A DNA stretch of 64,000 bases from Pseudovirgaria hyperparasitica (taxonomy: Eukaryota), in assembly GCA_010093815.1 (NCBI GenBank), contig ML996577.1. One strand, 5' to 3'. Numbering within the stretch: the first letter of the stretch is position 1; every line of letters begins with the position of its first letter. Below, in pieces: positions 153 to 58,277 of this stretch. The position numbers were made by a program, and so were the translations under genes. Under the pieces are notes generated by a model. The model did not search any database and was not told where the DNA came from. It saw nothing but the letters and a program-made list of their open reading frames with translations.

Positions 153-2609
153 CTACTTGCCCCCATCCAACAACGCAGTCGCCGCCTCAATCTTCTTCAC
201 AATGATCCCCACCCACTTCTCCGCATTATCCCAATCCCCAGCCTCAATGCTCTCCACCAAGCCCGGAAACGTCGCTCCGGCATACCCGGTCCAGATCCCG
301 GGCGCAAAAACGACATGCTTGAACCAAGACCTTCCGTCGAGCCCTTCCTCGTGCAAAAACTGTCTCTCGAGCGTCTTGTATTTTGTATTCACTTTGCGGG
401 TGAGGTAGTACAGCCGGACACGCTCCCACCATTTCCACGCTGGCGGGGGGTCCTTGAGACTTTCGCCGAGGTCTGCGGCGGATTGGTCCAGTTTGACAGA
501 CGCAGAGTAGAGGGACGTCAGGACTTGCTCTATCGGCTCGAAGATGGACGCGTGCTTGGCGGGGGTGCCTTTCTGCGCAGTCTTCTTGGCGCGCTCGAGA
601 TAGCCCGAGAGTCCGGTTGCATACTCCGTTGCGTTCAGAGCTAGGACGGGCGTCTCGACGAGTTTCGCCGCGAGCAGTGCCCAGACACGTGCGATTGTGG
701 CATGGTACTGGAAGCTTGGATCGCCGAATTTCTGCATCCAGGAGAAGGAGTCGTAGTTTGAGTGGTAGTGATACACGGCGCTGTGTTCGCCTGGCTGGAA
801 GCCCATGTCGATACTGGGGATGCCGGCGAAGTCCTGGAATGCGGTGAAGTCGGAACCGCTGCCCATCGTGGCGATTTTACCATCCCAGAGATCAGCGAGG
901 GTCTGGTTCACGACGGTCTGGTTGGGTGACTGAACTTTGCTCAATGTAGAGACAAAGGCGGTGTTCAAGAGCGGCGCGGAGGCGACGTGAAGATGTGGTC
1001 CGGATGTGCCAACGTCAACATTCAGGTATGCGACAGTGGAGGTTTGGAGCCAGGGGAGGTATTCTTCGACCCATCTGAGAATTGTTAGCCTGTATATAAG
1101 ATGTTTGACAGCTTTGACACTTACTCAGTTGAGCCAATGAGCCCATATTCTTCGCCGTCCCAACTGGCGAAGACAATGGTTCTCAGTGGCTTCCATCCGG
1201 CGTCGAGTGCGGTACCAAAGCTTCTAACGACTTCATTCATAGCTGCTGAGCCACTGTTCGGATCGCCAGCTCCACCAGCAATCCATGCATCTCGGTGGTT
1301 GCCAAGCACAATAACTTCGTCAGCTATCGTTCCGTTGATTATACCTATCACGTTCCATAGAGGAGTGATCTGATAGTCTTGCTCGTTGGACAAGTTGATG
1401 ACAAGATCATCTGGCGTGGGTCCAATATTGTAGTCCACACCTTTGTAACCGAGTCCACCGCCTTGCCAAAATTTATTGAACTTAGATGCCTTGGGTCCGT
1501 AGCCATTGAGCGCCTTCAATAATGGTAGAGCTTCTTTGTACGAGATTGGAAGAGACGGGATTGAAGGGATGGCATGGTCAACAGGTTTACGCTCAGCACC
1601 GGGGAGAGAAGGGTAACCAGGTGTTGTTGGATCACCAGGGGCCATGCCTGAAGTTGTTAGATCCTGAGGTTTGCATCTTATTAGACAAATACTGACTCAA
1701 AAATTGAACACTTCCTCGCTGGACGCTACTTTCCTGTCTCGCAAGACCATGTGGGTAAGGCTTATCGCCATTCTCTTCTGTAACGCCACCGTCATCACCC
1801 GGGTCCGTATACATAATTACTCCAACCATTCCGAGCTCTTGAGCACGTTTGACTTTAAGTCCCCGAAAGACGCCTCCGTATCGAGCAAGAGCAATCTTGC
1901 CACTGAGAGTGACGTTAGCATCAACGAGGTCCTGGTAGTCGTAGACGGTGCCATAATTCACGTATACATAAGGAGCCGTAACGTTTCCTGAGGCACTATA
2001 GCCGTGAAATGTGGGAATGCGATCCTCCAAACCGCTTGTACTGTCTTCGTCAAGAACATCCTCTTCGAGCGTAGCTTCAAATTTGACTTCCCAAGAATCT
2101 TTCTTCTCAGTAGAAAGACCATGCTTCTTCTTGCTCTTTTCCAATAGAGCCAGTCTGTGTGCGACAGGGTAATTTAGGTAGCAATCATAGGATACGATCT
2201 TACTAGCTACGCCAAACTCTTCCCAGCGGTCCTTCGTCCAGACTGCTTGTGAGAGATTCTTTCCTGCCAAGTGCGGTCCAGCAGTGTAGTATTTACTCCA
2301 CTCTTTCGCCTTCTTCGGGTCGGGTATATCGATCAGGATCCCTTCAAGCTCCTCATAGCTCAATCCGCTGCTCTGAGGCCATGATTGGGGTATGTGCTTC
2401 GATGACCCTGGGAGATACGGTGAAGGCGTATATGTACCATCATCAAGATGATCGGGGAGGAAGAGACCGAGGAGAAGAGAGGCGAGAACGAGGATAGGAA
2501 CGACTGTGAGCACTAACGAGCAGAATCGACGGAGAGTGTGGTGAGAATATCGCGGTGTCGCGGGACGGATCTGGATCACCTGGATCAGTGGGGTGCGTTC
2601 GTCAGCCAT
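153..2609 (-). CDS. Glutamate carboxypeptidase II / transferrin-receptor-like M28 peptidase (N-terminal TM, PA domain, M28 domain, TfR dimerisation domain); 3 exons
   Basis: ORFs 1632-2609, 1121-1645 and 153-968 join through GT-AG introns 1648-1696 and 1075-1124. Motifs: GNHRDAW, AGDPNSGSA, FASWDGEEYGLIGSTEW, YHYHSNYDSF, FKHVVFAPG..TGYAGATFPG. Confidence 0.93.
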
Positions 2610-3547
2610 GTCGAAGATCCCATCTGCTTCAAAAGAGGCCTTTTTGCAGAGTCGGAAGACTGGAGGAGCTCGTCCTCGTCCTCGTCCCGGTCCACTAGCA
2701 CACTATCGATGTTTGGATGCGGTGCGCGGCACCAATGACGTCGGCCGCTAGCCCCACTTCCGCCCGGGCGCCCGTTTCAACCAACTAGGGGGAGTGAAGA
2801 CGGGTGAGTTGATAAGAATACCATACTAAAACAGATTTCATATTCTATATTCCATAGATCATGCACTTTACCCCACTCAAACATAAGATAGGATTCTCCC
2901 TTCATTCTCTGAGTTGCCGGCAAGGGCTGCTTACATCCCAAGCCTCAGAGCCGACATTGGTGACCATATGCGATAACGGTAGTGATTGAAATTGATTCCC
3001 CATTTCGTGGTCAGCAAGGCAACACAAGATTGTATCCACCAACAGCACAGTTTCAACGGTGATACAACCCATGTTACGCGTATAGCCAACGCCAAATGTA
3101 TTACGGAATGATTACTATGCGTTTCCTCGCTTCTTCTGCCCAATCACCCCCAGTCAAGACAAATCCTAGATGCAGCATCAAACAACCATGCCTTGCTCCT
3201 CTCGCCCAAGTCCGCTCGGTAGCAGGCTTTAGTAATCTTATTCTCCAAACGTGTTGTAGAGATAGCCCACAACGTCGTGCTTCCGGAGTATCCTGTGGTC
3301 CGATAGCTCATTTCCAAGCATTGGTAAGTGATGTGTATACATTCTTGGCTTGCTTTCGGTGGAGTCTGCTCTTGGGACTACGAAGATGAGCGGTGAGATC
3401 AACTAGAGAGAATCATTGTACTGTAGGCGGAGAAGTATTCTGTGGTGAGTTGAGGACTATAAATGCAGGATGCCCGTGGTTATGATCTGGTATCAAAAAA
3501 ACATAGCTAGCAATTATCCTCACTTTTGCGTCTATAAAGCCTTCAAG

Positions 3548-4648: not shown

Positions 4649-6663
4649 TCAAGTCGATGTTGGGAAGAAGGGCCGCCTACGTTTTCCTTGGTCGTTACCT
4701 GAAGGTGTGTGGCTTTGCTTGGGTCGACTTCGTTTCTTATTCGTAACTGTTGACTTGAATACATGCTGCTCTGTGCTCAATACTTGTGTCTGGTGCGGAG
4801 ATCGGTCTTCTTTGACAACTTCTTTAATCGTTTGTCGAGATAAGCAAAGATCAATGTGACTATTGAAAGACTGATCGCCCGCGGGCTGTGGAAGGGAGCA
4901 TATGGGACAAGTCCAAAATTCATCTTTAGGTGACGAGGGCGGAGATGATTTTACAACCGTAGCCTTTTTTCCAGCAGCAACGCGATGCGACAATTCCCAG
5001 GCACTTTTCGGCATATGCTCCTGTTCGTGCTCTTGGCTGAGAGATTCAAGCTCGTTCATCTCATCTTGTCGTTCCTGCCGAGCTGCATCTTCAAACTCAG
5101 TGTCAGGCCATACCTCCCATGCTCCATCTTTGTCGACATTCCCATGTGCGATATTGTTCGAAGGACATGATTTCATTTTTTTCAGACCAAAGAAGTCTAT
5201 GCCAGCCTTCTTTGTGCTAATGAGATGCGTCACGCGTAATCCCATGAGTCGCAACTTCATCCCAGGAAAGTCTTTCTCGAGCTTTGCAAGCATTGGTTCT
5301 GAATACTTATACAGATCATCAGCTAGGTTCACCGCTCTTGGAGGCTGGACTTGTCGGGTAAAGACCTCATAAGTGTGCAGCTTGACCTTAAGACATAGTG
5401 TTCGTCCTCTATATTGGGTTCTCTCCAAATCTTTTTGGAGTTCTTCCGCAGTGTGGCGCAGCTTTTCTCTGAGCTCTGTCTTGTCGCCCATGTCCCGAAA
5501 CGTGCTTTCGGTTCCAACGCTCTTGCGATCGGATTCGTCAGGGGGCTGAATCGTGGTCCTCCCGAGACCCAGGTAGCATTGCATGAGAAATTGAAAGGCT
5601 TTCTCACCAAACAGTTTCGAAAGATACGCGCGGTACTCGTAAATGTCGCCTATTGTGTTTATCCCAACTTCTCGCAATTCGCGTTCGAAAACCCGACCGA
5701 TTCCGTTCACTTTCCGGGTTGGAAGGTCGCGCATAAAGTGCATTATCGTACTTCGGTCGCTCGCTACTTTGAACTGTCCATTGGGCTTATTCATATTAGA
5801 TCCAATCTTGGCCAACTTAGCATTCGGTGCAATACCAGCAGAAACCGTAATTTTAGCATGTTCATGGACCTCCGCACGGAGTTGTTCGACGGCATCCCAA
5901 GGGGTCATATCATGCTGCTGACAATATCCCGTGATATTCAGGTATGCTTCGTCGACACTGGCACTTTCAAAGTTTGGGTCGTATCTGGAAATGACCTCAC
6001 GAACCTCCTCAGCTTTAGCGGAATACTTCTCAAAGTTGAGTGGCAAGCAAATCAACTCTGGACATAATTTCATAGCAACAAAGCCAGCCATGCCACTCCG
6101 ACAACCAAACTTTCGTGCAGCATAGTTGCAAGTCGTGAGCACACCCTTGCCAACCGCAAAGGGAACGTCCTTGAGATCTGGCCTGTCCAGCTCTTCCACG
6201 GCCGCATAGAAAGCATCACAATCCAAGTGTACAATATGCTGCGACAAGTCTCGCGATAGCTCCAGTTCAGTAATATAGTCGTCTGCTCTGCGCAGGTCGG
6301 AGGTCAGGTCTAGGCGCTCGAGCTGTCGTTTTTTAGCTAATATCCTACTGATCTTGTCCGTCAACGTCTTATCTTTTGCTTCTTCATTGTTGAAAAACTT
6401 CGATCCTTTAGACGCATTGTAAATGACTTCTGATACCTGGACTTGTTAGTGTCATATCGTGCACAGGGCTGGACTGGATCTACCTTCTTCTGATCTACAG
6501 AGTCTTGACCAGCCTTGGTCAAGGATGGTCCAAGGAGGGAATACTTCAGAGAGTGATGCTGGCTTGAGCCCGGATGGGACCCATCTACTGCTGCCTGGTT
6601 GGCTGCTTCTTCGGATTTCACTTCGCGATCATGACCCTGTCCTTTAGCATGTTTGTCCGTCAT
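4649..6663 (-). CDS. DNA polymerase kappa (Y-family, DinB homologue) with C-terminal UBZ zinc finger; 2 exons
   Basis: Intron 6437-6483 joins ORFs 6361-6663 and 4649-6364. Motifs: LLGPSLTKAGQ, VHLDCDAFYAAVE, TCNYAARKFG, SVDEAYL, RKSVGTESTF, CPIC..HID.CL. Confidence 0.95.
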
Positions 6664-7362: not shown

Positions 7363-9405
7363 ATGCCTCCCGAACGACAAAATAATGCCAATCCGGCGCG
7401 CCCATTGATGCCAACGCTGGCTTCATCTAGGACTGCTCGGACTCCCATCACACCACGCCTTGCTGCTGCAGCTCAGCCTACGACAGGTGGTATGCGGCGG
7501 AACGACAGATCAGACATAACTTCAGCGCCGAACACGATACTGCCGTCCTCGTCCGTAACACCAGCAAACAAGAAATCCCTCAATAGTAACATTACACCCC
7601 GTTCTTCCGACCGAAGATCACGCGCCGGTAGCACTCAGTCAACATCCAACGATGCCTCAATACACTCTCCACCGATGGCCAGTCGGCCTGTATCAGGATT
7701 CGATGGTTACAGGAGAGATACAGGGAACAGCTACACCGGCTCAAGCTTAGCAGCAGCAGCACCAGTCGGTGGTGGAAGATCTCGCAGTGTCATAGGCCCT
7801 GGCAGCGCGCAAGCCGGCAAAATGAGGAGCCGCTCGCCCCATTCCACCTTGTCTGGGATCGCTGGATCCGAGTCGGGCGCGCGAGAAGATCAGTCGATGT
7901 TCTTCCACGCCGATGAAGCAAGATCGCAACGTGCTGCGGTAGCACCCCCAGTGCCGAGTGCACCAGTACAGAAGAAGCCTACATTTTTCTACGCTGATGG
8001 AAGGAGGGAGACTGGCTTTGTGGAGCCTGTCGGGGTTCCGTCGCCTCCTTTGTCAAGTCTAGGAAGAAACAATCTTTCACCTCCGTCACAATTCTTCCTG
8101 GCAAGTGATGCTCCGGTTTGCAAGCCGAGTAGTATACATCCCGCGGCGTCTCCCCCTTCCGCTCTTCCCGAACCCAACATACAGGCTCCACAATCCAGAG
8201 CACTGGCTTTGAGATCACCTTCGCCGGAGAAAATTAACATCCATCTGTCTTATCGCAAAGGCGCATCGCAGATCATGAGACCGAACGGCCACCGACCGTC
8301 GCCCGTATCGATCCTATCAAGCGAGCATTTGACTAGACGTCGCTCGAGCACTGATTCTCCTCTTGCAAAATCTTCGCATGCAAAGACCAGTAGCTTGTCC
8401 TCGATTGATTCCATCAACTCACCTCCTCGTCTACACGAAGGCAAGGTCGAATCCACCTCACCTACAACACCACTAAGAGCTAACATAGCCAAAAATTTCA
8501 CGGAAAAAAGTACCGGTCGGCCGTCGTTGGACTCCAACTTGTCATTGCCTAGCGAGAGTCAGGTGGCGATGTCTGAGGACCATGTTTCGGGGCCCCAAAG
8601 TCCGACTGCACCGTTGCAGAGTGGAAATAGTCTGCAAAAGATGAACGAGCTTGCAGCCAATGCTAGGCGTGAGAGGAAAGTACTGGATCTTGAGATTAGC
8701 AATTCGTCCCTCCTTGCTATCAATCGACAATTAGAACGAGAAGTTCGAAAACAGAAGGCGGAACTACGACGTTATAGGCGACTAAGTCGAGCGGGTAGGT
8801 TCTCAACTAGTACCGCCCGTACCTCGTCGGGCGAGTATTTCGACATCGATGACAGCGAGAGCCTGGACATATTAAATGAAGTCGATGAGGATGCGGAAGA
8901 GGATGAGGATGAGGAACAGTCTTTGAGCGAATCATCTGCCGAAGATGAAGATTTATCGCCCGATGCTCTTGCTGAGCGCGATGCACGACATGCGTTTAAA
9001 GACGAAAAACGATTGCAGCTCGATCTGTCGAGGCATAAAGAACTTTTGGTGGACTCTCAGAAGATGAACCAAAGTCTAAAGCGTTGCCTGGGCTGGACAG
9101 AGGAGCTTATTGCTGAAGGGAGGAAAGCGCTGGAGTACAAAGTCAAGGTTTCAGACGTAAAACTTGGTGGTCGTGTGCTTCAGGCAACGGAGCATGAAAA
9201 CGACTACAACGATGATGACGAGGAAAATGATCCTACGATCGGTTCTGGTGGAGCTCTGTTGAGCCCATGGATCCCGAGTTCTGAGATGCAAGAAGATCAG
9301 ATAAATGCTTTATTGACATCCATCAACGCGGCTCGTACAGATCGAGATAGTGGTATCGAACTCGAGCTCCCCCAGACCCGAAAAGACCAACTAGAGCTAT
9401 CATAA
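7363..9405 (+). CDS. Uncharacterised conserved fungal protein; Ser/Pro-rich N-terminus, C-terminal coiled coil and acidic tract
   Basis: 680-aa uninterrupted ORF with an ordered, conserved-looking block ELAANARRERKVLDLEISNSSLLAINRQLEREVRKQKAELRRYRR and LLVDSQKMNQSLKRCLGWTEELI. Confidence 0.85.
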   Translation: MPPERQNNANPARPLMPTLASSRTARTPITPRLAAAAQPTTGGMRRNDRSDITSAPNTILPSSSVTPANKKSLNSNITPRSSDRRSRAGSTQSTSNDASIHSPPMASRPVSGFDGYRRDTGNSYTGSSLAAAAPVGGGRSRSVIGPGSAQAGKMRSRSPHSTLSGIAGSESGAREDQSMFFHADEARSQRAAVAPPVPSAPVQKKPTFFYADGRRETGFVEPVGVPSPPLSSLGRNNLSPPSQFFLASDAPVCKPSSIHPAASPPSALPEPNIQAPQSRALALRSPSPEKINIHLSYRKGASQIMRPNGHRPSPVSILSSEHLTRRRSSTDSPLAKSSHAKTSSLSSIDSINSPPRLHEGKVESTSPTTPLRANIAKNFTEKSTGRPSLDSNLSLPSESQVAMSEDHVSGPQSPTAPLQSGNSLQKMNELAANARRERKVLDLEISNSSLLAINRQLEREVRKQKAELRRYRRLSRAGRFSTSTARTSSGEYFDIDDSESLDILNEVDEDAEEDEDEEQSLSESSAEDEDLSPDALAERDARHAFKDEKRLQLDLSRHKELLVDSQKMNQSLKRCLGWTEELIAEGRKALEYKVKVSDVKLGGRVLQATEHENDYNDDDEENDPTIGSGGALLSPWIPSSEMQEDQINALLTSINAARTDRDSGIELELPQTRKDQLELS

Positions 9406-10077
9406 GCTGCTCAGTAGGCTTTTTTCCACGACAGGTCTTTAAGATCTACACCACTTCCACAGACACATCAGGTTCGCTTTCCTTTGTTAACGCAAACAGC
9501 TTGACTCTTCGGGCTTGCAGGATCCTCTGGCGTTGAGTAATGAGCTGGTAGGGGACCACGAGGAAGGCACAGCTGGACTGGAGCGATCATATTACGGGTG
9601 AACATTTTTCGAGGCATAGTTTGACTCATGGCGGAACCACTACCTTTGTTTGTTGCTTGTTGACCCTGTACAATTTGGCCGGTACATTGAACGCACCCAT
9701 ACCCCATGATACCCCCTATTCATAGTCTATCTCTTGATAGACCAGTCAAGATTATATAGCTGACGGTCTGTACATAGTCACTCTACTGTCAGAGCAATAG
9801 ACTGTATAATTTACTCAATCAGCGCTGATCGTGAAATCGGTAGATACTGGCTGGCTGATTACCATAGCGTGCGTTGGTTAATTCGCATGCCTCTACTTCC
9901 TCTGATTCAACTCTTCTGGGAACTCAGCCACCACCTGGCATCTACCAGCTGACGTCATCCGGAAGTGCTACTTAGCCACCTTGCTAGATAGATCTTCAGA
10001 AGAACATCATACGAAAGGAGCTCGCAGATCGCTTTCTCACAACAGTTCCCGTAGTAGCAGATGCACAGAATCAAAGG

Positions 10078-11625
10078 ATGGGACAGAACCTATCCGACCA
10101 CCCTCTAGCCATTCCAGATAATCGTCTTCAGATCTTAATCAACCAGATCAAAGACTACCAGATAACTCATGGCTCTCTAATAAAACTTCTGCCAGGGGTA
10201 AATAATAATGAGGAATCGCCTGTGCAGTCTGTTCCAGTCGGTGTTGCAGTATTTCCAACTCCATGGCCGCGAGAGCTGTTCGAGCGAGCTACGGAGATTC
10301 AGCAGGCCTTCAATGAGCTGTACATACGGATTTCGGAGGATCCCAAGTGGTTGGGCGATGTACTAGTAGATCTACGACGATCGGATAGTTTCACACAGAA
10401 GCTATGGAGAATATGGGAAGCTGTGAGCGAAGAGCAGAAGGGCGAGGAAGGCCGCACGAATCTAGGCATTTTCCGGAGCGACTACATGCTACATGATAGA
10501 AGGGGAGACGGACAAGAGCTCGATATCAGGCAGGTTGAATTTAATACCTTTTCCGTGGCCGGTGGTACGCACGGGAACATAGTAGGGAATATGCATCGGC
10601 ACCTTTGTCGGACTGGCGCGTTTGATGCCGAAAACACCACGGCAGGCAAGACGAACCAGTGCAAGCTCGAAAACCTTCCAATCAACGACACCATCAAGGG
10701 CATAGTCGCGGGTCTGAAAGCCGCACACGAGGCATACGGCCCAGCAAGGAGCTCAGATGTCTCAGCAACGGCAATGCTTATGGTCGTGCAACCCCACAAT
10801 ATCAATATCTGCGATGAACGTCCACTAGAATACGCACTATGGGACCAGAGTCCCTCTATACCCTGCTACCGTGTCGTCTTCAGCGACGAAGTTTTGGAGC
10901 GAACCTCTCTCACGGCCGACAAGCTTCTTCTGTACCACCCACCGCATACCGCCCAGCCCGTCGAGATCTCAGTCGTGTACTTCCGCGCCGGATATGACAT
11001 GCACGAATACACCGATGCCGGCATCAAAGCCCGATACCTACTCGACCGCAGTCGGGCTATCATATGCCCCTCGATCCTGAGTCATCTTGCGACGTTCAAG
11101 AAGGTCCAGCAAGCGCTCTGTGTGCCTGGCGCTGTGGAGCGTTTTCTGCCAGACGAGAAAGCTAGGCTTGTGAGAGCGACGTTCAGTGCTATTCTGCCTA
11201 TGGACGAGGAGTCTAGGCTGGGCCAATATGCGAGGGAGCTTACGCAGGATTCCGTGAGGGCAATCGATTACATCCTCAAGCCTTCTCTCGAAGGTGGCGG
11301 GCATAACGTGTATGGGATCGATATTGTGCCGTTCTTAGCGAAGGTGCATAAACGGAGATGGGCGCAGTACATCCTCATGGAGTGCATACGACCGCCGAAG
11401 ATAGACAATATCTTGTTGACTGGGAGAGGCGTATATCAAGGACCAGTAGTTAGTGAGTTAGGCATGTTTGGCACATGTTTGTGGATGAGTGATGTTGGCG
11501 ACGGCGTCGAGATCTTGCGAAACGAATGCGCGGGTTGGAGCTTCAAGACGAAGGCTGCGGACGTTGACGAGATGAGCGTGGTAAAAGGATATGGTTGCTT
11601 TGACTGTCCTTATCTGACTGTCTAG
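10078..11625 (+). CDS. Eukaryotic glutathione synthetase-like ATP-grasp ligase (divergent)
   Basis: 515-aa intronless ORF with FPTPWP, LGIFRSDYM, QVEFNT, VVYFRAGY, LATFKKVQQAL, LKPSLEGGGHNVYG, YILMECIRPP, VSELGMFG. Confidence 0.9.
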   Translation: MGQNLSDHPLAIPDNRLQILINQIKDYQITHGSLIKLLPGVNNNEESPVQSVPVGVAVFPTPWPRELFERATEIQQAFNELYIRISEDPKWLGDVLVDLRRSDSFTQKLWRIWEAVSEEQKGEEGRTNLGIFRSDYMLHDRRGDGQELDIRQVEFNTFSVAGGTHGNIVGNMHRHLCRTGAFDAENTTAGKTNQCKLENLPINDTIKGIVAGLKAAHEAYGPARSSDVSATAMLMVVQPHNINICDERPLEYALWDQSPSIPCYRVVFSDEVLERTSLTADKLLLYHPPHTAQPVEISVVYFRAGYDMHEYTDAGIKARYLLDRSRAIICPSILSHLATFKKVQQALCVPGAVERFLPDEKARLVRATFSAILPMDEESRLGQYARELTQDSVRAIDYILKPSLEGGGHNVYGIDIVPFLAKVHKRRWAQYILMECIRPPKIDNILLTGRGVYQGPVVSELGMFGTCLWMSDVGDGVEILRNECAGWSFKTKAADVDEMSVVKGYGCFDCPYLTV

Positions 11626-11880
11626 TTCAATCACCATCCTGAAATCTTAGTCGACGAGATCTCAAGATGCGCCGTTCGTATAGGCTATGCACAGCTATAA
11701 ATCTGCATATTGGCCCTGGAGCAGGCTATGCTTCTTCCATTGGGATCCGTAAGTATTATTTAATAATGATCTAAAGAAGCCCTCCCTCGCCCGTAGTGCA
11801 GATGCCAGTTACAAAACAAAAAAAAATAAACAAAGTGCATCGAAACGAAGGTACGCCGAAGTCGCGAAATGCAAAACATT

Positions 11881-11984: not shown

Positions 11985-13507
11985 ACTCATGTATTCAGCA
12001 TTTGGCTCAGGAAAATTATAACTGTTGATAAAAATTGCTTTCAGAGTGGGGAAGAGTGACCAGGGTCAACCAATGAGTCTTTGCTTAGAGCCGGGTGAGA
12101 CCCGGCTAGTTCTCCACAATTTTACAACTTCAATCCACGTCGTTCGTTGCAACGTCGGACGTCAGATGTCCTCAGTCTCTTTCTAGCAATGTCTGGCACC
12201 GTGTGTGGTAGAGTACTCTACTAAACAAACGACCTCTCTTGGGGAGAATACTTGCTGTCATTCAGGCCTTATCGCCTTGGTGCATCTGTCACTTTATATC
12301 CTGTACTAGTATCGTCTTTCATACGTGTCTTATGATTTCACCGTTCGTTATATATGCAGTCACTAACAATATCCAAAGACATTCACCATATGTCTAGCTC
12401 CCCAGTAATATTGCTAGAATGCCCCATGAGTCGCCCTATTCGTGGCTGCCGTTTGATCCTAGATTGTATAAGAGCAACTACGCTGGCGGCATCACAACTC
12501 ATAAAAATCTTCTTTGACCTTCTTGGACTCAAGACCTCCGATGATATGTACCTTGGCATCAGGCTGGCGTATGTGCAAGAGAGCTTCTCTTTAGGCTTCC
12601 AAGGCTCTTTCAAATGCAACAGAGATTCGATTACTTTAATTGTCCGCGCGATCGTGGATGACTTTTGAAGTTCAGATTGAGAACAATTGTAGAAAGCCTT
12701 GCGACCTTGATGAGCAGCCGAAAGTCTTACATTGAACGGGACAATGAAGATCACAGGCGATTTTGCAAAGGATTAGCCACTGTTCATTATCAGGTCGACA
12801 AGCTCACTGATGAGGTCGAGCAACTTCGTTGCGTCCTTTCAACGAAAGTGTTGTCCGACTCCAAGATTTCTGCTGAATCCTCGCTCGGGTGTGCTGTGTT
12901 GTGTTGGCTGCCGAGACGAATCGGCTTTATGTAACTTTGGAAGAGCTCGTGAAGGCGAAAGGAGCTGTCGTAGGAGATCGGAAGATATGGAACGACTATT
13001 CAAGAGCATTGGAAGTACCAGCTTCGGAAGCAAAGGATGTTGTATGGGCGAGCAGTGGTATATTCTAAGACTTTGTAGAATATGCTCTCACACCTTGACA
13101 GCACGACTCCGACGAATCCGATGACGATCACGATCACGATTGGGCACTCGATCGATCGCGACCCAGACCGAGGGCGAGTCCAGCAGCTATCGGAGTGCAG
13201 GGTCATCGTAGCAGAAAGACTTCCATTCCACGATACAGAAAAAGCTCTGTCCGAACGCGATTGTATGATGGCAGGTAGCTTCCCAGGGAAAGAGACCTAG
13301 TAGCGCCTACAAGGCGGCCACTTCCACCCTACCGAACAGCGCAAAATGCCATTGTTTGCGAGCATAGCTTAAGCACGAGCCAGTGAACAGCGAACCGTGG
13401 GTAGGCAGCACCCCGCTTGTGTGGTGCCGCTGCCACACTATTTACACATACTTGCTTTACTTGGGGTATATAATCATGTCAACGAGTACTGTTCTCATAA
13501 CCCCAGT

Positions 13508-13648
13508 GGGAGAATAGTCTAGTTGGTTAACGACCTGACCTACCACTGAAGCAAAGCACCAGATGAAGGAGCTAAGTATCTGCAGGGGAGCAGAGGCGCG
13601 GGTTCGACCCTTGTGGACCTGAGCCTTTTGTATTTTTTCGACTTTTTT
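13508..13648 (+). pseudogene. tRNA-derived Pol III-like element (pseudo-tRNA or SINE head)
   Basis: A-box/D-arm-like TAGTCTAGTTGGTTAACGAC at 13515, B-box GGTTCGACCC at 13601 and T-runs at 13626-13648. No acceptor stem can be formed. Confidence 0.55.
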
Positions 13649-17417: not shown

Positions 17418-19125
17418 ATGGCAGCATCGTGCCGCGCTGCCAACAGGCTTCGAGGAGCTCTGCTTTCCCACGGACTTCGATCTCGCTCACAAACTTCCCT
17501 CATAGCTGTCAATGGCATCCGGAAGGTCTCTGCTGCGGCAGCTGTCAAGGCCGCTATCACTGGACAGTCATACTTTCCGGACGAGCCAAGGGTCCCAATC
17601 GTGAAGACTGAGATCCCCGGGCCGAAGAGTACAGAGGCAATCAAGAGACTTAGCCAAGTCTTCGACACCAGGTCACTGAACATGATGGCCAACTACAAGG
17701 ACAGCTACGGCAATTAGTGAGCGGCTTCCAGGCCAGGATATGAGAAACTTGGCAACTGACGGACTATAGCATCGCAGATCTGGATGGGAACCTACTCCTA
17801 GACGTGTAAGGCTAGCATGTCTGTCTGTTATGTTTTCCACAATATCTAACACAGCACGCAGGTATGCTCAGATTGCCTCCATACCTGTCGGATACAACAA
17901 CCCGGCGCTCCTCCTCGCCGCCACATCCCCTGACATGGCCTCGGCCATCATCAACCGTCCAGCGCTCGGAAACTTCCCCCAGCACGACTGGGCCGAGATA
18001 CTCGCCACGGGAATCCTCAAAGTAGCACCACGCGGTCTCGACCAAGTCTTCACCGGCGTCAGCGGCTCCGACGCCAACGAACTCGCCTTCAAGGCAGCAT
18101 TCATGTGGAAGCGGCAGCAACAACGCGGCACAGCCGACTTCACCCCCGAAGAAATCGAATCCTCCATGAACAACAAGTCCCCCGGCTCACCCGACCTCTC
18201 CATCCTCTCCTTCACCTCCGCCTTTCACGGCCGCCTCTTCGGCTCCCTCTCAGCAACCCGCTCCAAGCCGATCCACAAACTCGACATCCCCTCCTTCAAC
18301 TGGCCGCAAGCCCCCTTCCCCCAATGCAAATACCCACTCGACGCCCACTCCGCCGCCAACATGGCCGAAGAAGCCCGCTGTCTCGCGGAAACCGAGCGGC
18401 TCATCACCGAATGGCCGCACCCGCCCGCCGCCATCATCGTCGAGCCCATCCAGTCCGAAGGCGGCGACAACCACGCCTCGCCACACTTCTTCCGCGGCCT
18501 GCGCGACCTCACGCGCAAGCACAACATCCTCTTCATCGTCGACGAGGTCCAGACCGGCGTCGGCGCCACCGGCCGCTTCTGGGCCCACGACCACTGGGCA
18601 CTCGAGCACCCGCCCGACATGGTCACGTTTAGCAAAAAGGCCCAGACGGCCGGCTACTACTACGGCGACCACGCCCTCCGGCCGAATAAGCCGTACCGCC
18701 AGTTCAACACCTGGATGGGCGATCCCGCGCGCGCGATCCTGTTCCGCGCCATCATCGCGGAGATTGAGCGGCTCGGCTTGGTCGAGAATACGGCTGAGGT
18801 GGGCAGGTATACGTATGCTGGCTTGGAGCGGCTGGCGGACAAGTATCCCGGGCAGATTAATGACTTGCGCGGGAAAGGGCAGGGCACGTTTCTTGCGTTT
18901 GACAGTCCGAGGCGGGACGAGGTGCTGAGGAAGGCGAAGAGTGTGGGGTTGAATCTTGGGGGCAGCGGGGAGGCGGCGGTGCGGTTGCGGCCGATGCTGA
19001 TTTTCCAGAAGTATCATGGTGAGTCGAATCTTGTCCTGGGTGCGTTTTAGTGTGGTTTACTGACTGGACGTTTGATGGCAGCCGATATGTTCCTGGAGCG
19101 CATGGAGATGATCTTGAAGTCGTGA
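17418..19125 (+). CDS. gatA: 4-aminobutyrate (GABA) aminotransferase with mitochondrial-type presequence; 4 exons
   Basis: AQIASIPVGYNNP, SGSDANELAFKAAF, FHGRLFGSLS, VEPIQSEGGD, DEVQTGVGATG, FSKKAQ (PLP lysine), FNTWMGDP. The last exon after the intron at ~19019-19081 ends LKS* at 19125. Confidence 0.95.
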
Positions 19126-53057: not shown

Positions 53058-53528
53058 GGCGGCCCGGCAGAACGCTCCCACAGAAAACAAAGTAGATGGA
53101 TGTGAGGGACGAGAAATGCGCCAGAGCAGAATATCTTGTGTGAATGCGCTCCACGTCAAGTCGCGTCGTCACCTCTCAGGCCGAGGTTGGTGATCGAAAG
53201 GGAATAGTGAGGTGCCCGTGATGCGGCTCGGCGCTGGCGCCCCTTGTAAATCCACCACCGTGCTCACACCTCATATGTGTCCCGGCCACGACAAATACAC
53301 CACGCCGCAGTGTCTCACGCGCGAGGCTGCTTCTATGAAGACTGATTTTCTGCGCATTAAAAGAGACATATTCCAGTCGATCTAGCGACCTGAACCCCAT
53401 TGAACTGAGTCCGGGAGAAACGACCCCCGCGCGTGAGTCGATTACGCGCCCATCAGGCATCTCGGACTTTCGCGTCTACATCTTCTAACGGCCACACCAG
53501 CCTTATATCCAGCATTGCGCCAGGATCA

Positions 53529-55102
53529 ATGGAGTTCTCCCTCGACAACAACTTCCTCAATCTTGTCGGCGCGCAGTCCAGCCCATCACTTGGCCTTGCT
53601 CACCATGGCGGTTCTGAGGCTCAGCGACCTTCTCAGTCCTGCGTCAATGATGAGGGCATGAGCAATCAACGTGCGCAATGGGAAGCCAACTATGCAAATA
53701 TTGATATGCCCCCACCACCTCCCGCGGTGTTCAACACTCGAGAAGAGATGATTGCCGAAGCCAAGGAATTCGCAGAGTCCCATGGATACACGCTTGTCAT
53801 CGGCCACTCTTCAAAGCATCAGGGTGAACCCTCGCGCTGCTGGCTTACGTGCGACCTCGGAGGCGTGTATCGCAACAGACATCATCTGACTCCCGAGATG
53901 CGCAAGCGGAAACGAGAATCCCGTAAGCTGGACTGTCCCATGCGCGTACTTGGAACCAAGCGAAAGTACGAAAATGGCTGGATATTACACCTTCCTGACC
54001 CTGTGAGAGCATTACACAACCATGGATCAACCACTCAAAGCGAACCTCCTCCTCCGCCGGCAGAGTTCCCAGAACTAGAGCAAGCTCTCTACCAGTGGCA
54101 GCAGCAGTGTTTTGCCGATGGTATACCTGTTCACGGCAACACTCTCAAAGCGAAAGCCATCGAGTTGTACAAAAGCATGCCGGTGTATCGTGACAGAGGC
54201 CCAATCCCAGAATTAGGTGTGAATTGGCTGAATGACTATCGGAAGCGTCAGAACCTTCCAACCCGAACACAACAAAAAGGGTCGAGCACTAACACTCCAA
54301 ACCGACCACCGTCGATAAGCAACGTGCAACTCAGCATGGAGGATACACTGCCTCTCCCTCGGAACACTCTTGAGCTTTTCAAATCTGTGAAAGGATACGT
54401 CAAGACCTACATGGCAAAGTTTGATGCTTCTCATGACTTCAACCATATTTTGCGTGTGCTCGCTCTTGCCAACCGGATCTACACTACTGAAATCACAAAT
54501 TATCCCCAGGCTCAGTACGACCCAAGCGCTGTCTTTCTTGCCGCGTACGTCAATGATACGATGACCGTGATTGCCATTGCTGATTGAAATAGACTGCTTC
54601 ATGACATTGGCGACCAGAAATATGAGTCGGGTGCTTATACAGAAAATCAGATTGCTGAGATTCTGCTCGAGCGCGGTGCGTCTGACGTTCTTGCGTTGAA
54701 AGTCCAGATGATAGCAAAGAACACATCGTACTCGATCGAAACCAAGAATCCCTTGCTAACGAGAGCTATCCTTGCGCAAAATCCGGAGCTTGCGATAGTT
54801 CAGGATGCCGATCGCTTAGATGCTATAGGAGCCATTGGCATTGGCCGCGCGTTTACGTTTGGAGGTGCGAAGCGACCTCATGAGGGCATGGATGGAACGA
54901 TTAAGCACTTCGGCGATAAGCTTGAGAAGCTTGAAAGTATGATGAAGGTATGTGTGCCATCTCAGCGTGCCTGGTTCAATCGAGTAACACAGTGAAGACC
55001 GAAACCGGAAAGCAGATCGCTCGTGAGCGCACGAACCGACTCGAGGTGTTCAAGTCCTGGTGGCAGGAGGAGACCGAAGGACTGGCGAGATGGAAAGAAT
55101 AG
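53529..55102 (+). CDS. Chimeric protein: FAR1/MULE-type (WRKY-GCM1-like) DNA-binding domain + CENP-B/Tc5-type HTH + HD-domain phosphohydrolase; 3 exons
   Basis: One ORF carries CDLGGVYRNR..RKRKRESRKLDCP..W..HNH, then FPELEQALYQW..GIPVHG.TLKAKA..WL..YRKR, then DASHDFNHILRV. Intron 54545-54592 restores AALLHDIGDQKY. VQDADRLDAIGAIGIGRAFTFGG and HF.DKL follow; intron 54948-54997 gives KTETGKQIARERT..FKSWWQEE. Confidence 0.82.
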
Positions 55103-55490: not shown

Positions 55491-56692
55491 TTTCGTGTAT
55501 ATTGTTTACAGACTCAACCTGTCTTAACCAAATCTTGCGGATTTTTCCCAGGTGTGGCCTTCGGGCACAGCGGATTATGAAGCGGACCGGTCACCTGGTG
55601 GGCGGATTATCAGATGCTCGCATCTACTCTCTTTTTGTTTCCTGGCTTTACTCTCTCTTAAACTTTTTGGTCCCATGATCTGGATGGTGGATGTTCTCAC
55701 GTTTGTGGTTTTGCGGTCGTCGTACGACGGTGGATCATCAGCCCAATCACTCACACAGACAGTTCAGAACACCATCTTCGACTGACAGCTGCAACATCCA
55801 CAGACGGCAACTGGCGTGTGGGAAAGGAAACAAAGCATAGGACCCTCTAATGACACCCCGCTTTACGCCACTACAAGGACTAGGAGTGAGATAAAGGACA
55901 TGTCTTGGCGGAGAGGACTTGGACAAAGAGGCTGGAGCAACAATCTGTGGAGACGTGCAACACGCTCGAATGTACCCTACCAATCCCCAACAAGATGCAT
56001 CTCCGCATAACGATCGTACTCAGTGTATCCACTCTCTGGTATCTGTAAATATGGGGCCTGGCCGGTGTGAGGGTCATGGTTAGTACCGAACTGCGAGTGC
56101 ACGAGACCCATTGCCCCCATGCGCCTGACGTATTGGACAATGGGTTTCTTTGTCTGAGTTCGTCGAAACCTGTTCTACTATGTGAATCACGATACAGATA
56201 GTCAATTAGACTGATGCCATCATCGATAATCAAAGCTACCTCTACCTCTGCAGCAGCATAAATACTTCAACTCACCCTCTAACTACATACTCTCTACCAG
56301 TATCAAACCTCAGTCACCTCTGCTAAATTCATACAAGTAAGTTGCATTCTGAAGTGTCTCTGCCTCGCTGTTTCTCCTATGTATTCTTCTGGTCCTAGTC
56401 GCAGGGCAGCTTCCTTTCTTCAGATCGGATTAGGAAACTGCTTCGCGAAAAAAGACCTATATCTCCTCACCTTTCACTTTCACTTTCACTTCCAACTTCA
56501 ATCCTCATACTAACATATCATCATCCTCATTATTAACATTTTCTCAGTCCTCAAGCAGCCTCTTCTTGCCTAAGCAGTCGATTTCCTAATCTCAAGACGA
56601 ACACTTCACGTACAATCACATCAACCGTGGGTAAGCTGCCTACGTACATGCATCCGTTGTACTGATCACTCATGCAGATAGCTCCTAACGAA

Positions 56693-58277
56693 ATGTCTGA
56701 CCACCGCATTTGCTTCATCATCCCTCCTCAGATCTCGAGAGCTGTAGTCGATGCCGACGACATCGACGATGAAGTAAAGCAGATGCACCGTCAAACACTT
56801 GACCACACCAACAGCCTCCGCGGTGCAAGGTTTCAGCGATGCGAAGCGGCTCGTACCGCTTCAGGTGAGCAAGGCCATAGCCACCCTATCATCCCACCCC
56901 ATATTCATAGCGCCATAGCAGAGGCTGGGAACGCAGAGGAGCAGGAAGCTGCACTAAGCACCCTTCAATATGACACTGAAGGACGTGCAGCTCGTCCTCG
57001 CGGCCTGAATAGGACCATCTACGACTTTCAGCACGATGATAACTCTCAGGATCTTCCCGGAGATGTTGTTCTCCGCACGGAGGGCTCGGAGCCGGTCGAA
57101 TCATCAAAAGATAGTACGAACGATCCAAACGAATGCTACGACGGCTTTGGAGAGACCTACAAGCTATTCAACGATGTCTTCAAACGGAATTCAATTGATG
57201 GCAAGGGTGCAAAGCTGATTGGCTCTGTTCATTTCGGTAAGTAATGCCCTCGAAGAACATGTCACTCACCGCGGGTACTGACTCAAAGCTTCACAGGGAC
57301 AAAATATCAGGCAAGTCCAGCAGTTTCATGAGTTTCCTGCCACTGTTGACTGATGATAATTCAGAACGCGTTCTGGGACGGAAAGCAGATGGTCTTTGGT
57401 ATGATCCTCACCGCAAGCTCTCGTCTCGCTTGTCCTGTCTGCTGACCCACACGCAGGTGATGGTGATGGTACTATCTTTAGAGATGTGAGTTGGGTTCCT
57501 TCTCCAGCTATACAGCCATACTGACATTAATCCAGTTCACAAGCCGAGACGATGTGTATGCATTCAGGTCTTACCTTACTATAGTTCAATAACTGACGGT
57601 CGCAGCATTGGTCACGAACTGACGCACGCTGTCACTCAATTCACTGCCAACCTCATATATGAAAATCAGCCTGGTGCCCTCAACGAGTCCATATCTGACG
57701 GTATGATTCGAGACTCCTAAGATAACTTCGTTCTGACAAGAAACAGTCTTTGGCATCATGGTCAAACAATACAAGCTAGGCAAGCCAGCCGCTGAAGCCA
57801 ACTGGATCCTTGCCGAGGGCATCTGGGGCCCTGGGATCAACGGTAGAGGTCTTCGCGACATGCAGAACCCAGGAACGGCATACAATGATCCGAAAATTGG
57901 AAAGGATCCTCAGCCTGCTCACATGAGTAAGCATAACCAATAACAACAACCAGGTATGATAAATGCTGACGTCCGCTCTAGAGGACTACAAGAAGCTCCC
58001 AAACACTGCAGATGGTGACTATGGCGGTGTCCATATCAATTCCGGCATACCGAATAAGGCCTTCTATCTTGCGGCAACCAAAATCGGGGGCAACTCTTGG
58101 GATGGTGCCGGTCCCATCTGGTATGAAACACTCACTGGCGGGAAGTTGAAGTCCAACGCCACTTTCCAACAGTTCGCCGACTTGACGGTACTCAATGCTG
58201 GGCCCCACGCTTCGCAGGTCGTTGCTGCTTGGAAGGAAGTCGGCATCAGCGCGAAGTCTGGTAGGTCGGAGCTTTAA
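56693..58277 (+). CDS. Thermolysin-family (M4) metalloprotease, protealysin-like; 8 coding exons including one GC-AG intron
   Basis: Propeptide ICFIIPPQI. The spliced core reads [41 protein letters not shown], then [27 protein letters not shown]...[27 protein letters not shown]. Confidence 0.92.

Follow-up and report, generated by a model that had tools for sequence, protein, structure and literature searches.

Glutathione synthetase (GS) is encoded by a single gene in almost all eukaryotes, and for about a billion years plants, fungi and animals have kept its canonical glutamate pocket, the nematode effectors being the exception (PMC5919673). In human numbering, which is used below for GS, the γ-glutamyl moiety is contacted by R267, S151, E214 and N216, the cysteinyl backbone by R125 and S149, and the glycyl carboxylate by R450 (through a salt bridge) and the backbone amides of V461 and A462; human, yeast and T. 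brucei GS all share these substrate-contact residues, which are described as strictly conserved (PMC2845819). The gene described here lies in a 64,000-nucleotide stretch (the window) of contig ML996577.1 of Pseudovirgaria hyperparasitica (assembly GCA_010093815.1). It encodes a GS-like ATP-grasp ligase, P0001, in which several of these contacts are changed, and which belongs to a real, conserved and probably neofunctionalised family of GS paralogs. GS-like proteins with the variant motifs of P0001 are referred to as V-type, and canonical GS as C-type.

Plant homoglutathione synthetase (soybean structures 3kaj, 3kak and 3kal) and the rice hydroxymethyl-glutathione synthetase OsGS2 (PMC6508825) use a changed terminal amino acid, a property attributed to two Ala positions of the A-loop, and still use γ-Glu-Cys (PMC5919673). 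These plant enzymes are GS paralogs in which only the acceptor loop is changed, whereas the fungal V-type, which is of independent origin, is changed in the γ-glutamyl pocket, at R450 and in the G-loop flank as well. The closest analogy is provided by the GS-like effectors of clade 3 in the nematode Globodera pallida (5oeu, 5oev and 5oet). These are likewise GS paralogs with the ATP-grasp machinery, the catalytic Arg and a non-canonical glutamate pocket; they have lost GS activity, and other substrates have been proposed for them. The six positions of the effector pocket are all substituted and hypervariable, with 21 compositions in 24 proteins (PMC5919673), while the fungal V-type changes two of the six (E214 and Q220) plus S151, with the replacements fixed at 0.97–1.00. 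Further, the nematode proteins are secreted and have expanded in their lineage, whereas the fungal V-type is typically present as one gene per genome, and the N-terminus of P0001 (MGQNLSDHPLAIPDNR) is hydrophilic as judged by eye and gives no sign of secretion. The E-64 ligase Cp1B (PDB 9cjn; PMC12568646), too, is a fungal enzyme: it is a stand-alone amide ligase of the ATP-grasp type with a GS-like three-domain architecture. It falls outside PF03917 and inside a biosynthetic gene cluster, in contrast to the V-type gene, which is not clustered.

The gene consists of one ATG-to-stop frame without interruption:

10078..11625, + strand: coding sequence of the V-type GS-like ATP-grasp ligase P0001, intronless, 515 aa, stop codon included in the coordinates

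Residues 16–513 of the protein matched positions 3–363 of the 363 in the PF03917 profile (369.7 bits against a cut-off of 25; E = 1.7e-110), and PF03199 was matched with 104.5 bits (cut-off 20.9; E = 5.4e-30). Since both Pfam domains were matched over their whole length in a single open reading frame (ORF), the gene is complete and intronless; an intronless gene had been claimed by the original prediction, which was made from the sequence of the window. In phmmer comparisons with PDB entries, P0001 matched yeast GS (1m0t; E = 4.6e-67), human GS (2hgs; 3.1e-49), potato GS (5oes; 3.3e-49), soybean homoglutathione synthetase (3kaj; 4.5e-43) and the nematode effector 5oeu (3.7e-34). The score against yeast GS was 230 bits, versus 330 bits for a Pezizomycotina C-type protein. 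The AlphaFold2 model of P0001, obtained with 40 relatives as input, had a predicted local distance difference test score of 91.1 and a predicted template modelling score of 0.92. Its top Foldseek match was the closed form of yeast GS (1m0w_A; E = 1.6e-43; template modelling (TM) scores 0.83/0.89), with Cp1B at rank 32 (TM 0.55/0.58; 13% identity). P0001 is a member of the eukaryotic GS superfamily.

Residue-by-residue alignments of P0001 to human (2hgs) and yeast (1m0t) GS were used to map its residues. The core strings RSDY, QVEFNT, FRAGY, KKVQQ, EGGG and SELG, which the original prediction had held to be intact, were all found in the translation. The motif changes it had listed were each confirmed by the two alignments: LLRTK reads SFKTK, KPQREGGGNN reads KPSLEGGGHN, NTISASFGG reads NTFSVAGG, ERN..DQ reads NIN..DE and EGGVAAG reads EMSVVKG, the last at residues 498–504, exactly the nt 11569–11589 given for it. 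The segments concerned, all on the same strand as the gene, are as follows:

10543..10566, + strand: N156-TFSVAG-G163; the Mg ligand N156 (human N146) is retained, S151 is replaced by A161 and F152 by G162
10798..10818, + strand: γ-glutamyl pocket helix N241-I-N243-ICD-E247; E214 is replaced by N241, N216 is retained and Q220 is replaced by E247
10984..10995, + strand: S-loop R303-A-G-Y306 (human R267..Y270); the Arg is retained and the Tyr is present
11278..11316, + strand: G-loop K401-PSLEGGGHNVY-G413; K364, E368, GGG and N373 are retained, while Q366 is replaced by S403, R367 by L404 and N372 by H409
11539..11553, + strand: S488-FKT-K492; R450 is replaced by K490, and K452 is retained
11569..11589, + strand: A-loop E498-MSVVK-G504 in place of (D/E)GGVAAG; G459 is replaced by M499, G460 by S500, A462 by V502 and A463 by K503

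Thus, the γ-glutamyl contacts R303 and N243 are retained in P0001, and those of S151 and E214 are lost (A161 and N241). The glycine site has K490 instead of R450, and M-S-V-V-K-G instead of the A-loop G-G-V-A-(A/S/G)-G. The statement that the specificity motifs differ is upheld, the changed positions including published substrate contacts (PMC2845819). The legume precedent cited with it, in which a change of Ala-Ala to Leu-Pro switches the acceptor, applies to the acceptor loop of P0001 but does not cover the γ-glutamyl pocket, which is altered too. Overall, P0001 resembles canonical GS (yeast Gsh2, 1m0t/1m0w; human GS, 2hgs) in its two Pfam domains, its fold, its ATP-binding, Mg-binding and catalytic residues, and R125, R267 and N216. 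It differs in belonging to a separate paralog clade and in S151A, F152G, E214N, Q220E, Q366S, R367L, N372H, R450K and the change of GGVAAG to MSVVKG.

Of the 8000 candidates scored in a word-indexed protein search with P0001, 1482 were relatives; the best 120 of these were examined. The variant motifs were common to all 119 non-self proteins of this set, at 47–53% identity, and no match above 53% other than P0001 itself was present in it. The host of P0001 probably sits on a sparsely sampled Dothideomycete branch, which would explain the lack of a close V-type ortholog in the databases. Among the matches listed, the named V-type members were from Pezizomycotina only (Aspergillus, Penicillium, Leotiomycetes, Dothideomycetes, Xylariales and lichen-forming Lecanoromycetes), and other named V-like representatives (Pyrenula, Sphaerulina and Lineolata) also belong to Pezizomycotina. 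An exhaustive search of representatives gave 2506 matches at E ≤ 0.001, the best 150 of which were examined; among the representatives of at least 430 aa (n = 115), the A-loop was V-type in 37, canonical in 66 and neither in 12. A few V-like representatives (P0137 and P0173) showed degenerate G- and A-loops (e.g. KSSLQGSKHS with IDVANG, or RPSLGGSGDG), and may be decayed or further-diverged copies inside the V clade. The rewritten loops, taken at first for a peculiarity of this gene, instead mark a large family found throughout Pezizomycotina, in which they are conserved and of which P0001 is an ordinary member.

The canonical representatives closest to P0001 are themselves from Pezizomycotina (Verticillium, Kalaharituber and Xylographa), and P0001 is 39–41% identical to fungal C-type GS. 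The C-type set came from a search that used P0155 of Verticillium as query and of which the best 120 matches were examined; it consisted of Sordariomycetes and Leotiomycetes proteins with 62–86% identity, including P0345 of Fusarium graminearum. Seven species were named in both best-120 lists and had both types: Hypoxylon trugodes, Hypoxylon sp. CI-4A, Xylariaceae sp. FL0016, Xylariaceae sp. FL0662B, Annulohypoxylon moriforme, Cadophora sp. DSE1049 and Leptodontidium sp. 2 PMI_412. Inside one species, the V-type and C-type proteins were 37–44% identical. The idea that the variant loops are simply the Pezizomycotina form of GSH2 was ruled out by the occurrence of canonical GS in Pezizomycotina and in the same species.

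A careful maximum-likelihood (ML) tree was built from 42 rows, of which 16 were V-type, 11 were C-type from Pezizomycotina and 15 were other representatives, with 200 bootstraps, and was left unrooted. The V-type clade, with P0001 inside it, had a support of 100/100 and a stem of 0.48, and a branch set the Pezizomycotina C-type rows apart from all others in each of the 200 bootstrap trees (100%). A split with support 99/96 separated the V-type, the Pezizomycotina C-type and P0166 from all remaining rows, which included Neolecta, two Saccharomycotina (Dipodascopsis and Tortispora), Wallemia, Ramicandelaber, Conidiobolus, Pigoraptor and Lagenidium. The same V clade was recovered in a quick tree of 67 rows. 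P0001 therefore falls outside the GSH2 ortholog clade of its taxon, the V-type and Pezizomycotina C-type clades being separate. The presence of both types in seven species, together with the separate 100/100 clade, indicates that the V-type is a paralog of canonical GS. This agrees with the original prediction, which had proposed a paralog and pointed to a phylogeny as a check: the C-type is found in the same genomes in seven species, and the V-type forms a clade of its own beside the Pezizomycotina C-type, each fully supported. The simplest reading is that GSH2 was duplicated at or before the base of Pezizomycotina and that the copies were then patchily retained, the direction being read from an unrooted tree. 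Pairwise identities were lower for the V-type than for the C-type between Cadophora and Hypoxylon trugodes (V–V 46%, C–C 68%), between Leptodontidium and Xylariaceae FL0016 (48% and 65%) and between Cadophora and Leptodontidium (73% and 91%); the V-type evolves faster than the C-type.

Whether the host of P0001 also has a canonical copy bears on a first alternative, according to which P0001 is the sole GS of its genome, the canonical copy having been lost, and hence makes glutathione. The window contains only one GS homolog, and the host lies on an isolated Dothideomycete branch, the next matches of its γ-aminobutyric acid (GABA) aminotransferase being at 81% identity. Nevertheless, this explanation is very improbable: the C-type is present in all seven of the species comparable across the two lists, and it is strongly conserved across Pezizomycetes, Lecanoromycetes, Leotiomycetes and Sordariomycetes. 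Moreover, deletion of GSH2 in F. graminearum abolishes glutathione, leads to accumulation of γ-Glu-Cys and results in glutathione auxotrophy (PMC10790779). The GSH2 of that study is assumed to be the C-type protein P0345, because the Fusarium proteins among the matches listed were all C-type. We infer that a canonical GSH2 is present elsewhere in the genome of the P0001 host. In Talaromyces marneffei, two GS homologs are listed without comment (PMC10449922).

Fixed differences between the two types were sought in alignments of 119 V-type proteins (one of more than 600 aa was dropped from the 120) and 118 C-type proteins (two of fewer than 480 aa were dropped from the 120). In 73 columns the same residue was at least 0.95 identical in both types, and 32 columns were at least 0.85 conserved within each type with different residues. 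P0001 has the V residue at 29 of these 32 columns; its S86 is the C residue, and its I35 and L283 agree with neither type. Many of the 32 sites coincide with published substrate contacts or belong to the A- and G-loops. In the donor part of the site, the V-type and C-type residues were, respectively, A (0.97) and S (0.99) at position 151, G (1.00) and F (0.99) at 152, N (0.99) and E (1.00) at 214, and E (1.00) and Q (1.00) at 220. In the G-loop they were S (0.97) and Q (1.00) at 366, L (0.93) and R (1.00) at 367, and H (0.88) and N (0.98) at 372. In the acceptor part they were K (0.90) and R (1.00) at 450, M (0.97) and G (0.99) at 459, S (0.98) and G (0.99) at 460, V (0.92) and A (0.99) at 462, and K (1.00) and A (0.99) at 463. 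The substitutions listed thus reach 0.88–1.00 in the V-type set, and the canonical residues 0.98–1.00 in the C-type set. As the V residues are fixed in their clade and the canonical ones in the C-type, the motif changes of P0001 are more than chance. The position of Tyr270 was occupied by Tyr in 52% of V-type and 100% of C-type proteins. The two ends of the substrate site in the V-type are thus both unlike those of canonical GS, and the V-type pocket is held by purifying selection.

R125, D127, E144, N146, K305, K364, E368, G369–371, N373, E425 and K452, the ATP-binding, Mg-binding and catalytic set (in part after PMC2845819), were conserved at 0.98 or more in both types, and all were found in P0001. 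R267 and N216 reached 1.00 in both types, and R221, in the interface region, was retained at 0.99. The latter residue would fit a second alternative, in which the V-type is non-catalytic or regulatory, for instance as a partner of canonical GS in a heterodimer or as a metabolite sensor. The two subunits of GS, an obligate homodimer, communicate with each other (human GS (hGS) preprint), and the faster evolution of the V-type is in line with such a role. However, conservation of the ATP-binding, Mg-binding and phosphoryl-transfer residues at 0.98 or more in the 119 V-type proteins would be unexpected for a pseudoenzyme, and a non-catalytic role is hardly credible.

A more serious alternative is that the V-type is a second genuine GS isozyme, which joins glycine to γ-Glu-Cys, perhaps less efficiently, under different regulation or with some promiscuity, and whose pocket changes are compensated drift. 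The retention of the catalytic, ATP and Mg residues and of R125, R267 and N216 would suit such an enzyme, and E214N and Q220E together retain one acidic residue in the pocket helix. The naming of these proteins is also in its favour: every source calls the V-type 'glutathione synthetase', the name under which it stands in the databases, and in the ESM Atlas it was found in clusters with this automatic name only and without a functional lead. TIGR01986, the NCBIfam GS equivalog with a cut-off of 329.8 bits, was scored on three V-type and three C-type proteins; it gave 342.5 bits for P0001, 341.0 for the A. steynii V-type and 318.6 for the H. trugodes V-type, versus 439–482 for the C-types. The narrow pass of P0001 is a further point for the isozyme, as is the GS activity that the nematode clade-2 GS has with a non-canonical A-loop (PMC5919673). 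Since the cut-off is passed by some V-type proteins and missed by another, automatic naming as glutathione synthase is inconsistent, and the name is probably over-specific for the V-type. Against the isozyme, 12 pocket and loop positions are fixed as non-canonical clade-wide, and the C-type beside it retains the canonical residues. If the copies were redundant, purifying selection would not be expected to maintain a different pocket in five classes of fungi. The relaxed Tyr270 position points the same way, as Y270 binds γ-Glu-Cys and is the site of patient mutations (hGS preprint). An isozyme of this kind is therefore considered unlikely.

The reading that we prefer, and hold to be fairly probable from the pattern of substitutions, is that the V-type makes a small peptide other than glutathione. 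Several observations weigh against it. No biochemical datum for any V-type member was found in the literature. P0001 exceeds the TIGR01986 equivalog cut-off. Four of the six glutamate-pocket positions defined in PMC5919673 are retained in P0001 (R, N, Y and one Q), so γ-Glu-Cys might still be bound. A nematode clade-2 GS is active and still favours glycine, although neither Ala position of its A-loop has the canonical residue (PMC5919673), and A-loop changes alone are therefore no proof of a new acceptor. Finally, the co-occurrence of the V-type and the C-type was judged on seven species only, the overlap of two best-120 lists, and no named Eurotiomycete or Dothideomycete C-type was among the matches listed in the best 120.

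If the V-type does make a peptide other than glutathione, P0001 would be a cytosolic, catalytically competent ATP-grasp ligase whose specificity changed after the duplication of GSH2. ATP and two Mg2+ would be held as in GS, by K341, K401, E154, N156, E405, the GGG, N410, E460 and K492 (P0001 numbering). The donor may be an acyl-amino-acid or a dipeptide, whose C-terminal carboxylate, held by R133 and R303/N243, would be phosphorylated; the acyl phosphate would then be attacked by an amine acceptor beneath the closing A-loop. The pocket for the N-terminal part of the donor would be rebuilt by a shift of the acidic residue from position 214 to 220, loss of the S151 hydroxyl and relaxation of the Tyr270 position. 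The acceptor lid would be rebuilt by R450K (Lys490), by the change of GG-V-AA to MS-V-VK, with Ser500 and the invariant Lys503, and by Q366S and R367L. With both pockets rebuilt, γ-Glu-Cys and glycine are each unlikely to be the preferred substrates. Glutathione itself would be supplied by the canonical GSH2 elsewhere in the genome.

To inspect the surroundings of the gene, 9 + 31 ORFs from the whole 64-kb window were scanned with Pfam. The features nearest to the gene, and the aminotransferase mentioned above, are:

153..2702, − strand: M28/PA/TFR-dimer peptidase, in three adjacent ORF pieces with PA, Peptidase_M28 and TFR_dimer
4649..6445, − strand: Y-family DNA polymerase (Pfam)
7363..9405, + strand: Ser/Pro-rich protein of 680 aa with no Pfam match; its C-terminal part is acidic and coiled-coil-like
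9950..9957, no strand assigned: TGACGTCA, a palindrome of the cAMP response element (CRE) type for basic leucine zipper (bZIP) proteins, 121–128 nt upstream of the P0001 ATG
10016..11850, no strand assigned: segment covered by two public runs of one sample (X1, 10019–11850; X2, 10016–11784) in single colinear contigs with 0 differences and no joints
17770..19050, + strand: class-III (GABA) aminotransferase (Pfam)

The window also contains genes for GH47, CDC50, SWIRM, Pex16 and an MPN-domain protein (Pfam). No polyketide synthase, non-ribosomal peptide synthetase (NRPS) or tailoring set was detected by Pfam among the window ORFs, which were of housekeeping type only. For a comparison of neighbours, ORFs of at least 70 aa were collected from 20 of 80 metagenome loci (V-type loci with most flank) and from the first 30 kb of the window. 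No conserved neighbour of V-type genes was found, the GS ORF alone being common to all 21 loci. The next ORF clusters (11, 8, 6, 5, 4, 3 and 3 loci) were antisense ORFs within the GS gene itself, and each of the remaining ones was limited to two or three loci that have long flanks in common (e.g. L010/L011/L019, L032/L033/L036 and L001/L013) and are apparently related contigs. Many V-type genes of the metagenome loci were also single ORFs. The gene at 153–2702, about 7 kb from that of P0001, appears to contain introns and resembles those for glutamate-carboxypeptidase-II-like proteins (PSMA/NAALADase-type). Enzymes of this kind remove terminal glutamates from small peptides. As the pairing is not conserved in other V-type loci, it is probably a coincidence.

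Just downstream of the P0001 gene, a contig of run X1 skips 76 nt with GT..AG ends, at 12302/12379, which implies a spliced transcript of an unannotated gene at about 12150–13600 without a Pfam match. This skip suggests that the runs X1 and X2 are RNA; if so, their contigs give a weak hint that the P0001 gene is transcribed unspliced. Long contigs from both runs also span the Ser/Pro-rich ORF (7363–9405, + strand). A motif scan of the P0001 promoter region detected one TGACTCA, two pentamers resembling the stress response element (STRE) and one TGACGTCA, for which alone a chance estimate was made. The TGACGTCA lies about 60 nt before the first base under the X1 and X2 contigs and is the only match in the window, where 1.42 would be expected by chance. 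Given that the window-wide count equals chance, its position alone is suggestive, and it may or may not be part of the P0001 promoter.

Further along the window, the GC skew reverses sharply from +0.245 at 20–22 kb to −0.249 at 22–24 kb, next to a GC-rich block (0.60, at 18–20 kb). An ORF with the helix-turn-helix (HTH) domain of Tc5 transposases (53409–54584, + strand) may be the remnant of a pogo/Tc5-like element. Close to it, an ORF at 56666–57241 (+ strand) encodes a protealysin propeptide and an M4 thermolysin-type catalytic domain; M4 thermolysin-type peptidases are better known from bacteria.

The V-type is apparently an undescribed, old second GS-like family of filamentous ascomycetes; no paper describing a fungal GS paralog was found, subscription-only literature being outside the scope of the search. 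Its naming as 'glutathione synthetase' can mislead metabolic reconstructions as well as studies in which two GS genes are listed but not told apart, such as that of T. marneffei (PMC10449922). We propose tentatively, and with less than even confidence, that filamentous ascomycetes, the groups named above included, produce a low-molecular-weight peptide, perhaps a thiol, that has so far escaped detection, by means of this ancient GS paralog with changed donor and acceptor. The V-type occurs in five or more classes of Pezizomycotina, is old, and has fixed pocket residues. If the proposal is true, it would be a second exception to the conserved glutamate pocket and would point to peptide or thiol chemistry not yet known, in fungi that matter to medicine, agriculture and industry. 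A major fungal lineage would then have, beside glutathione, a second conserved small-peptide pathway independent of both ribosomes and NRPS enzymes.

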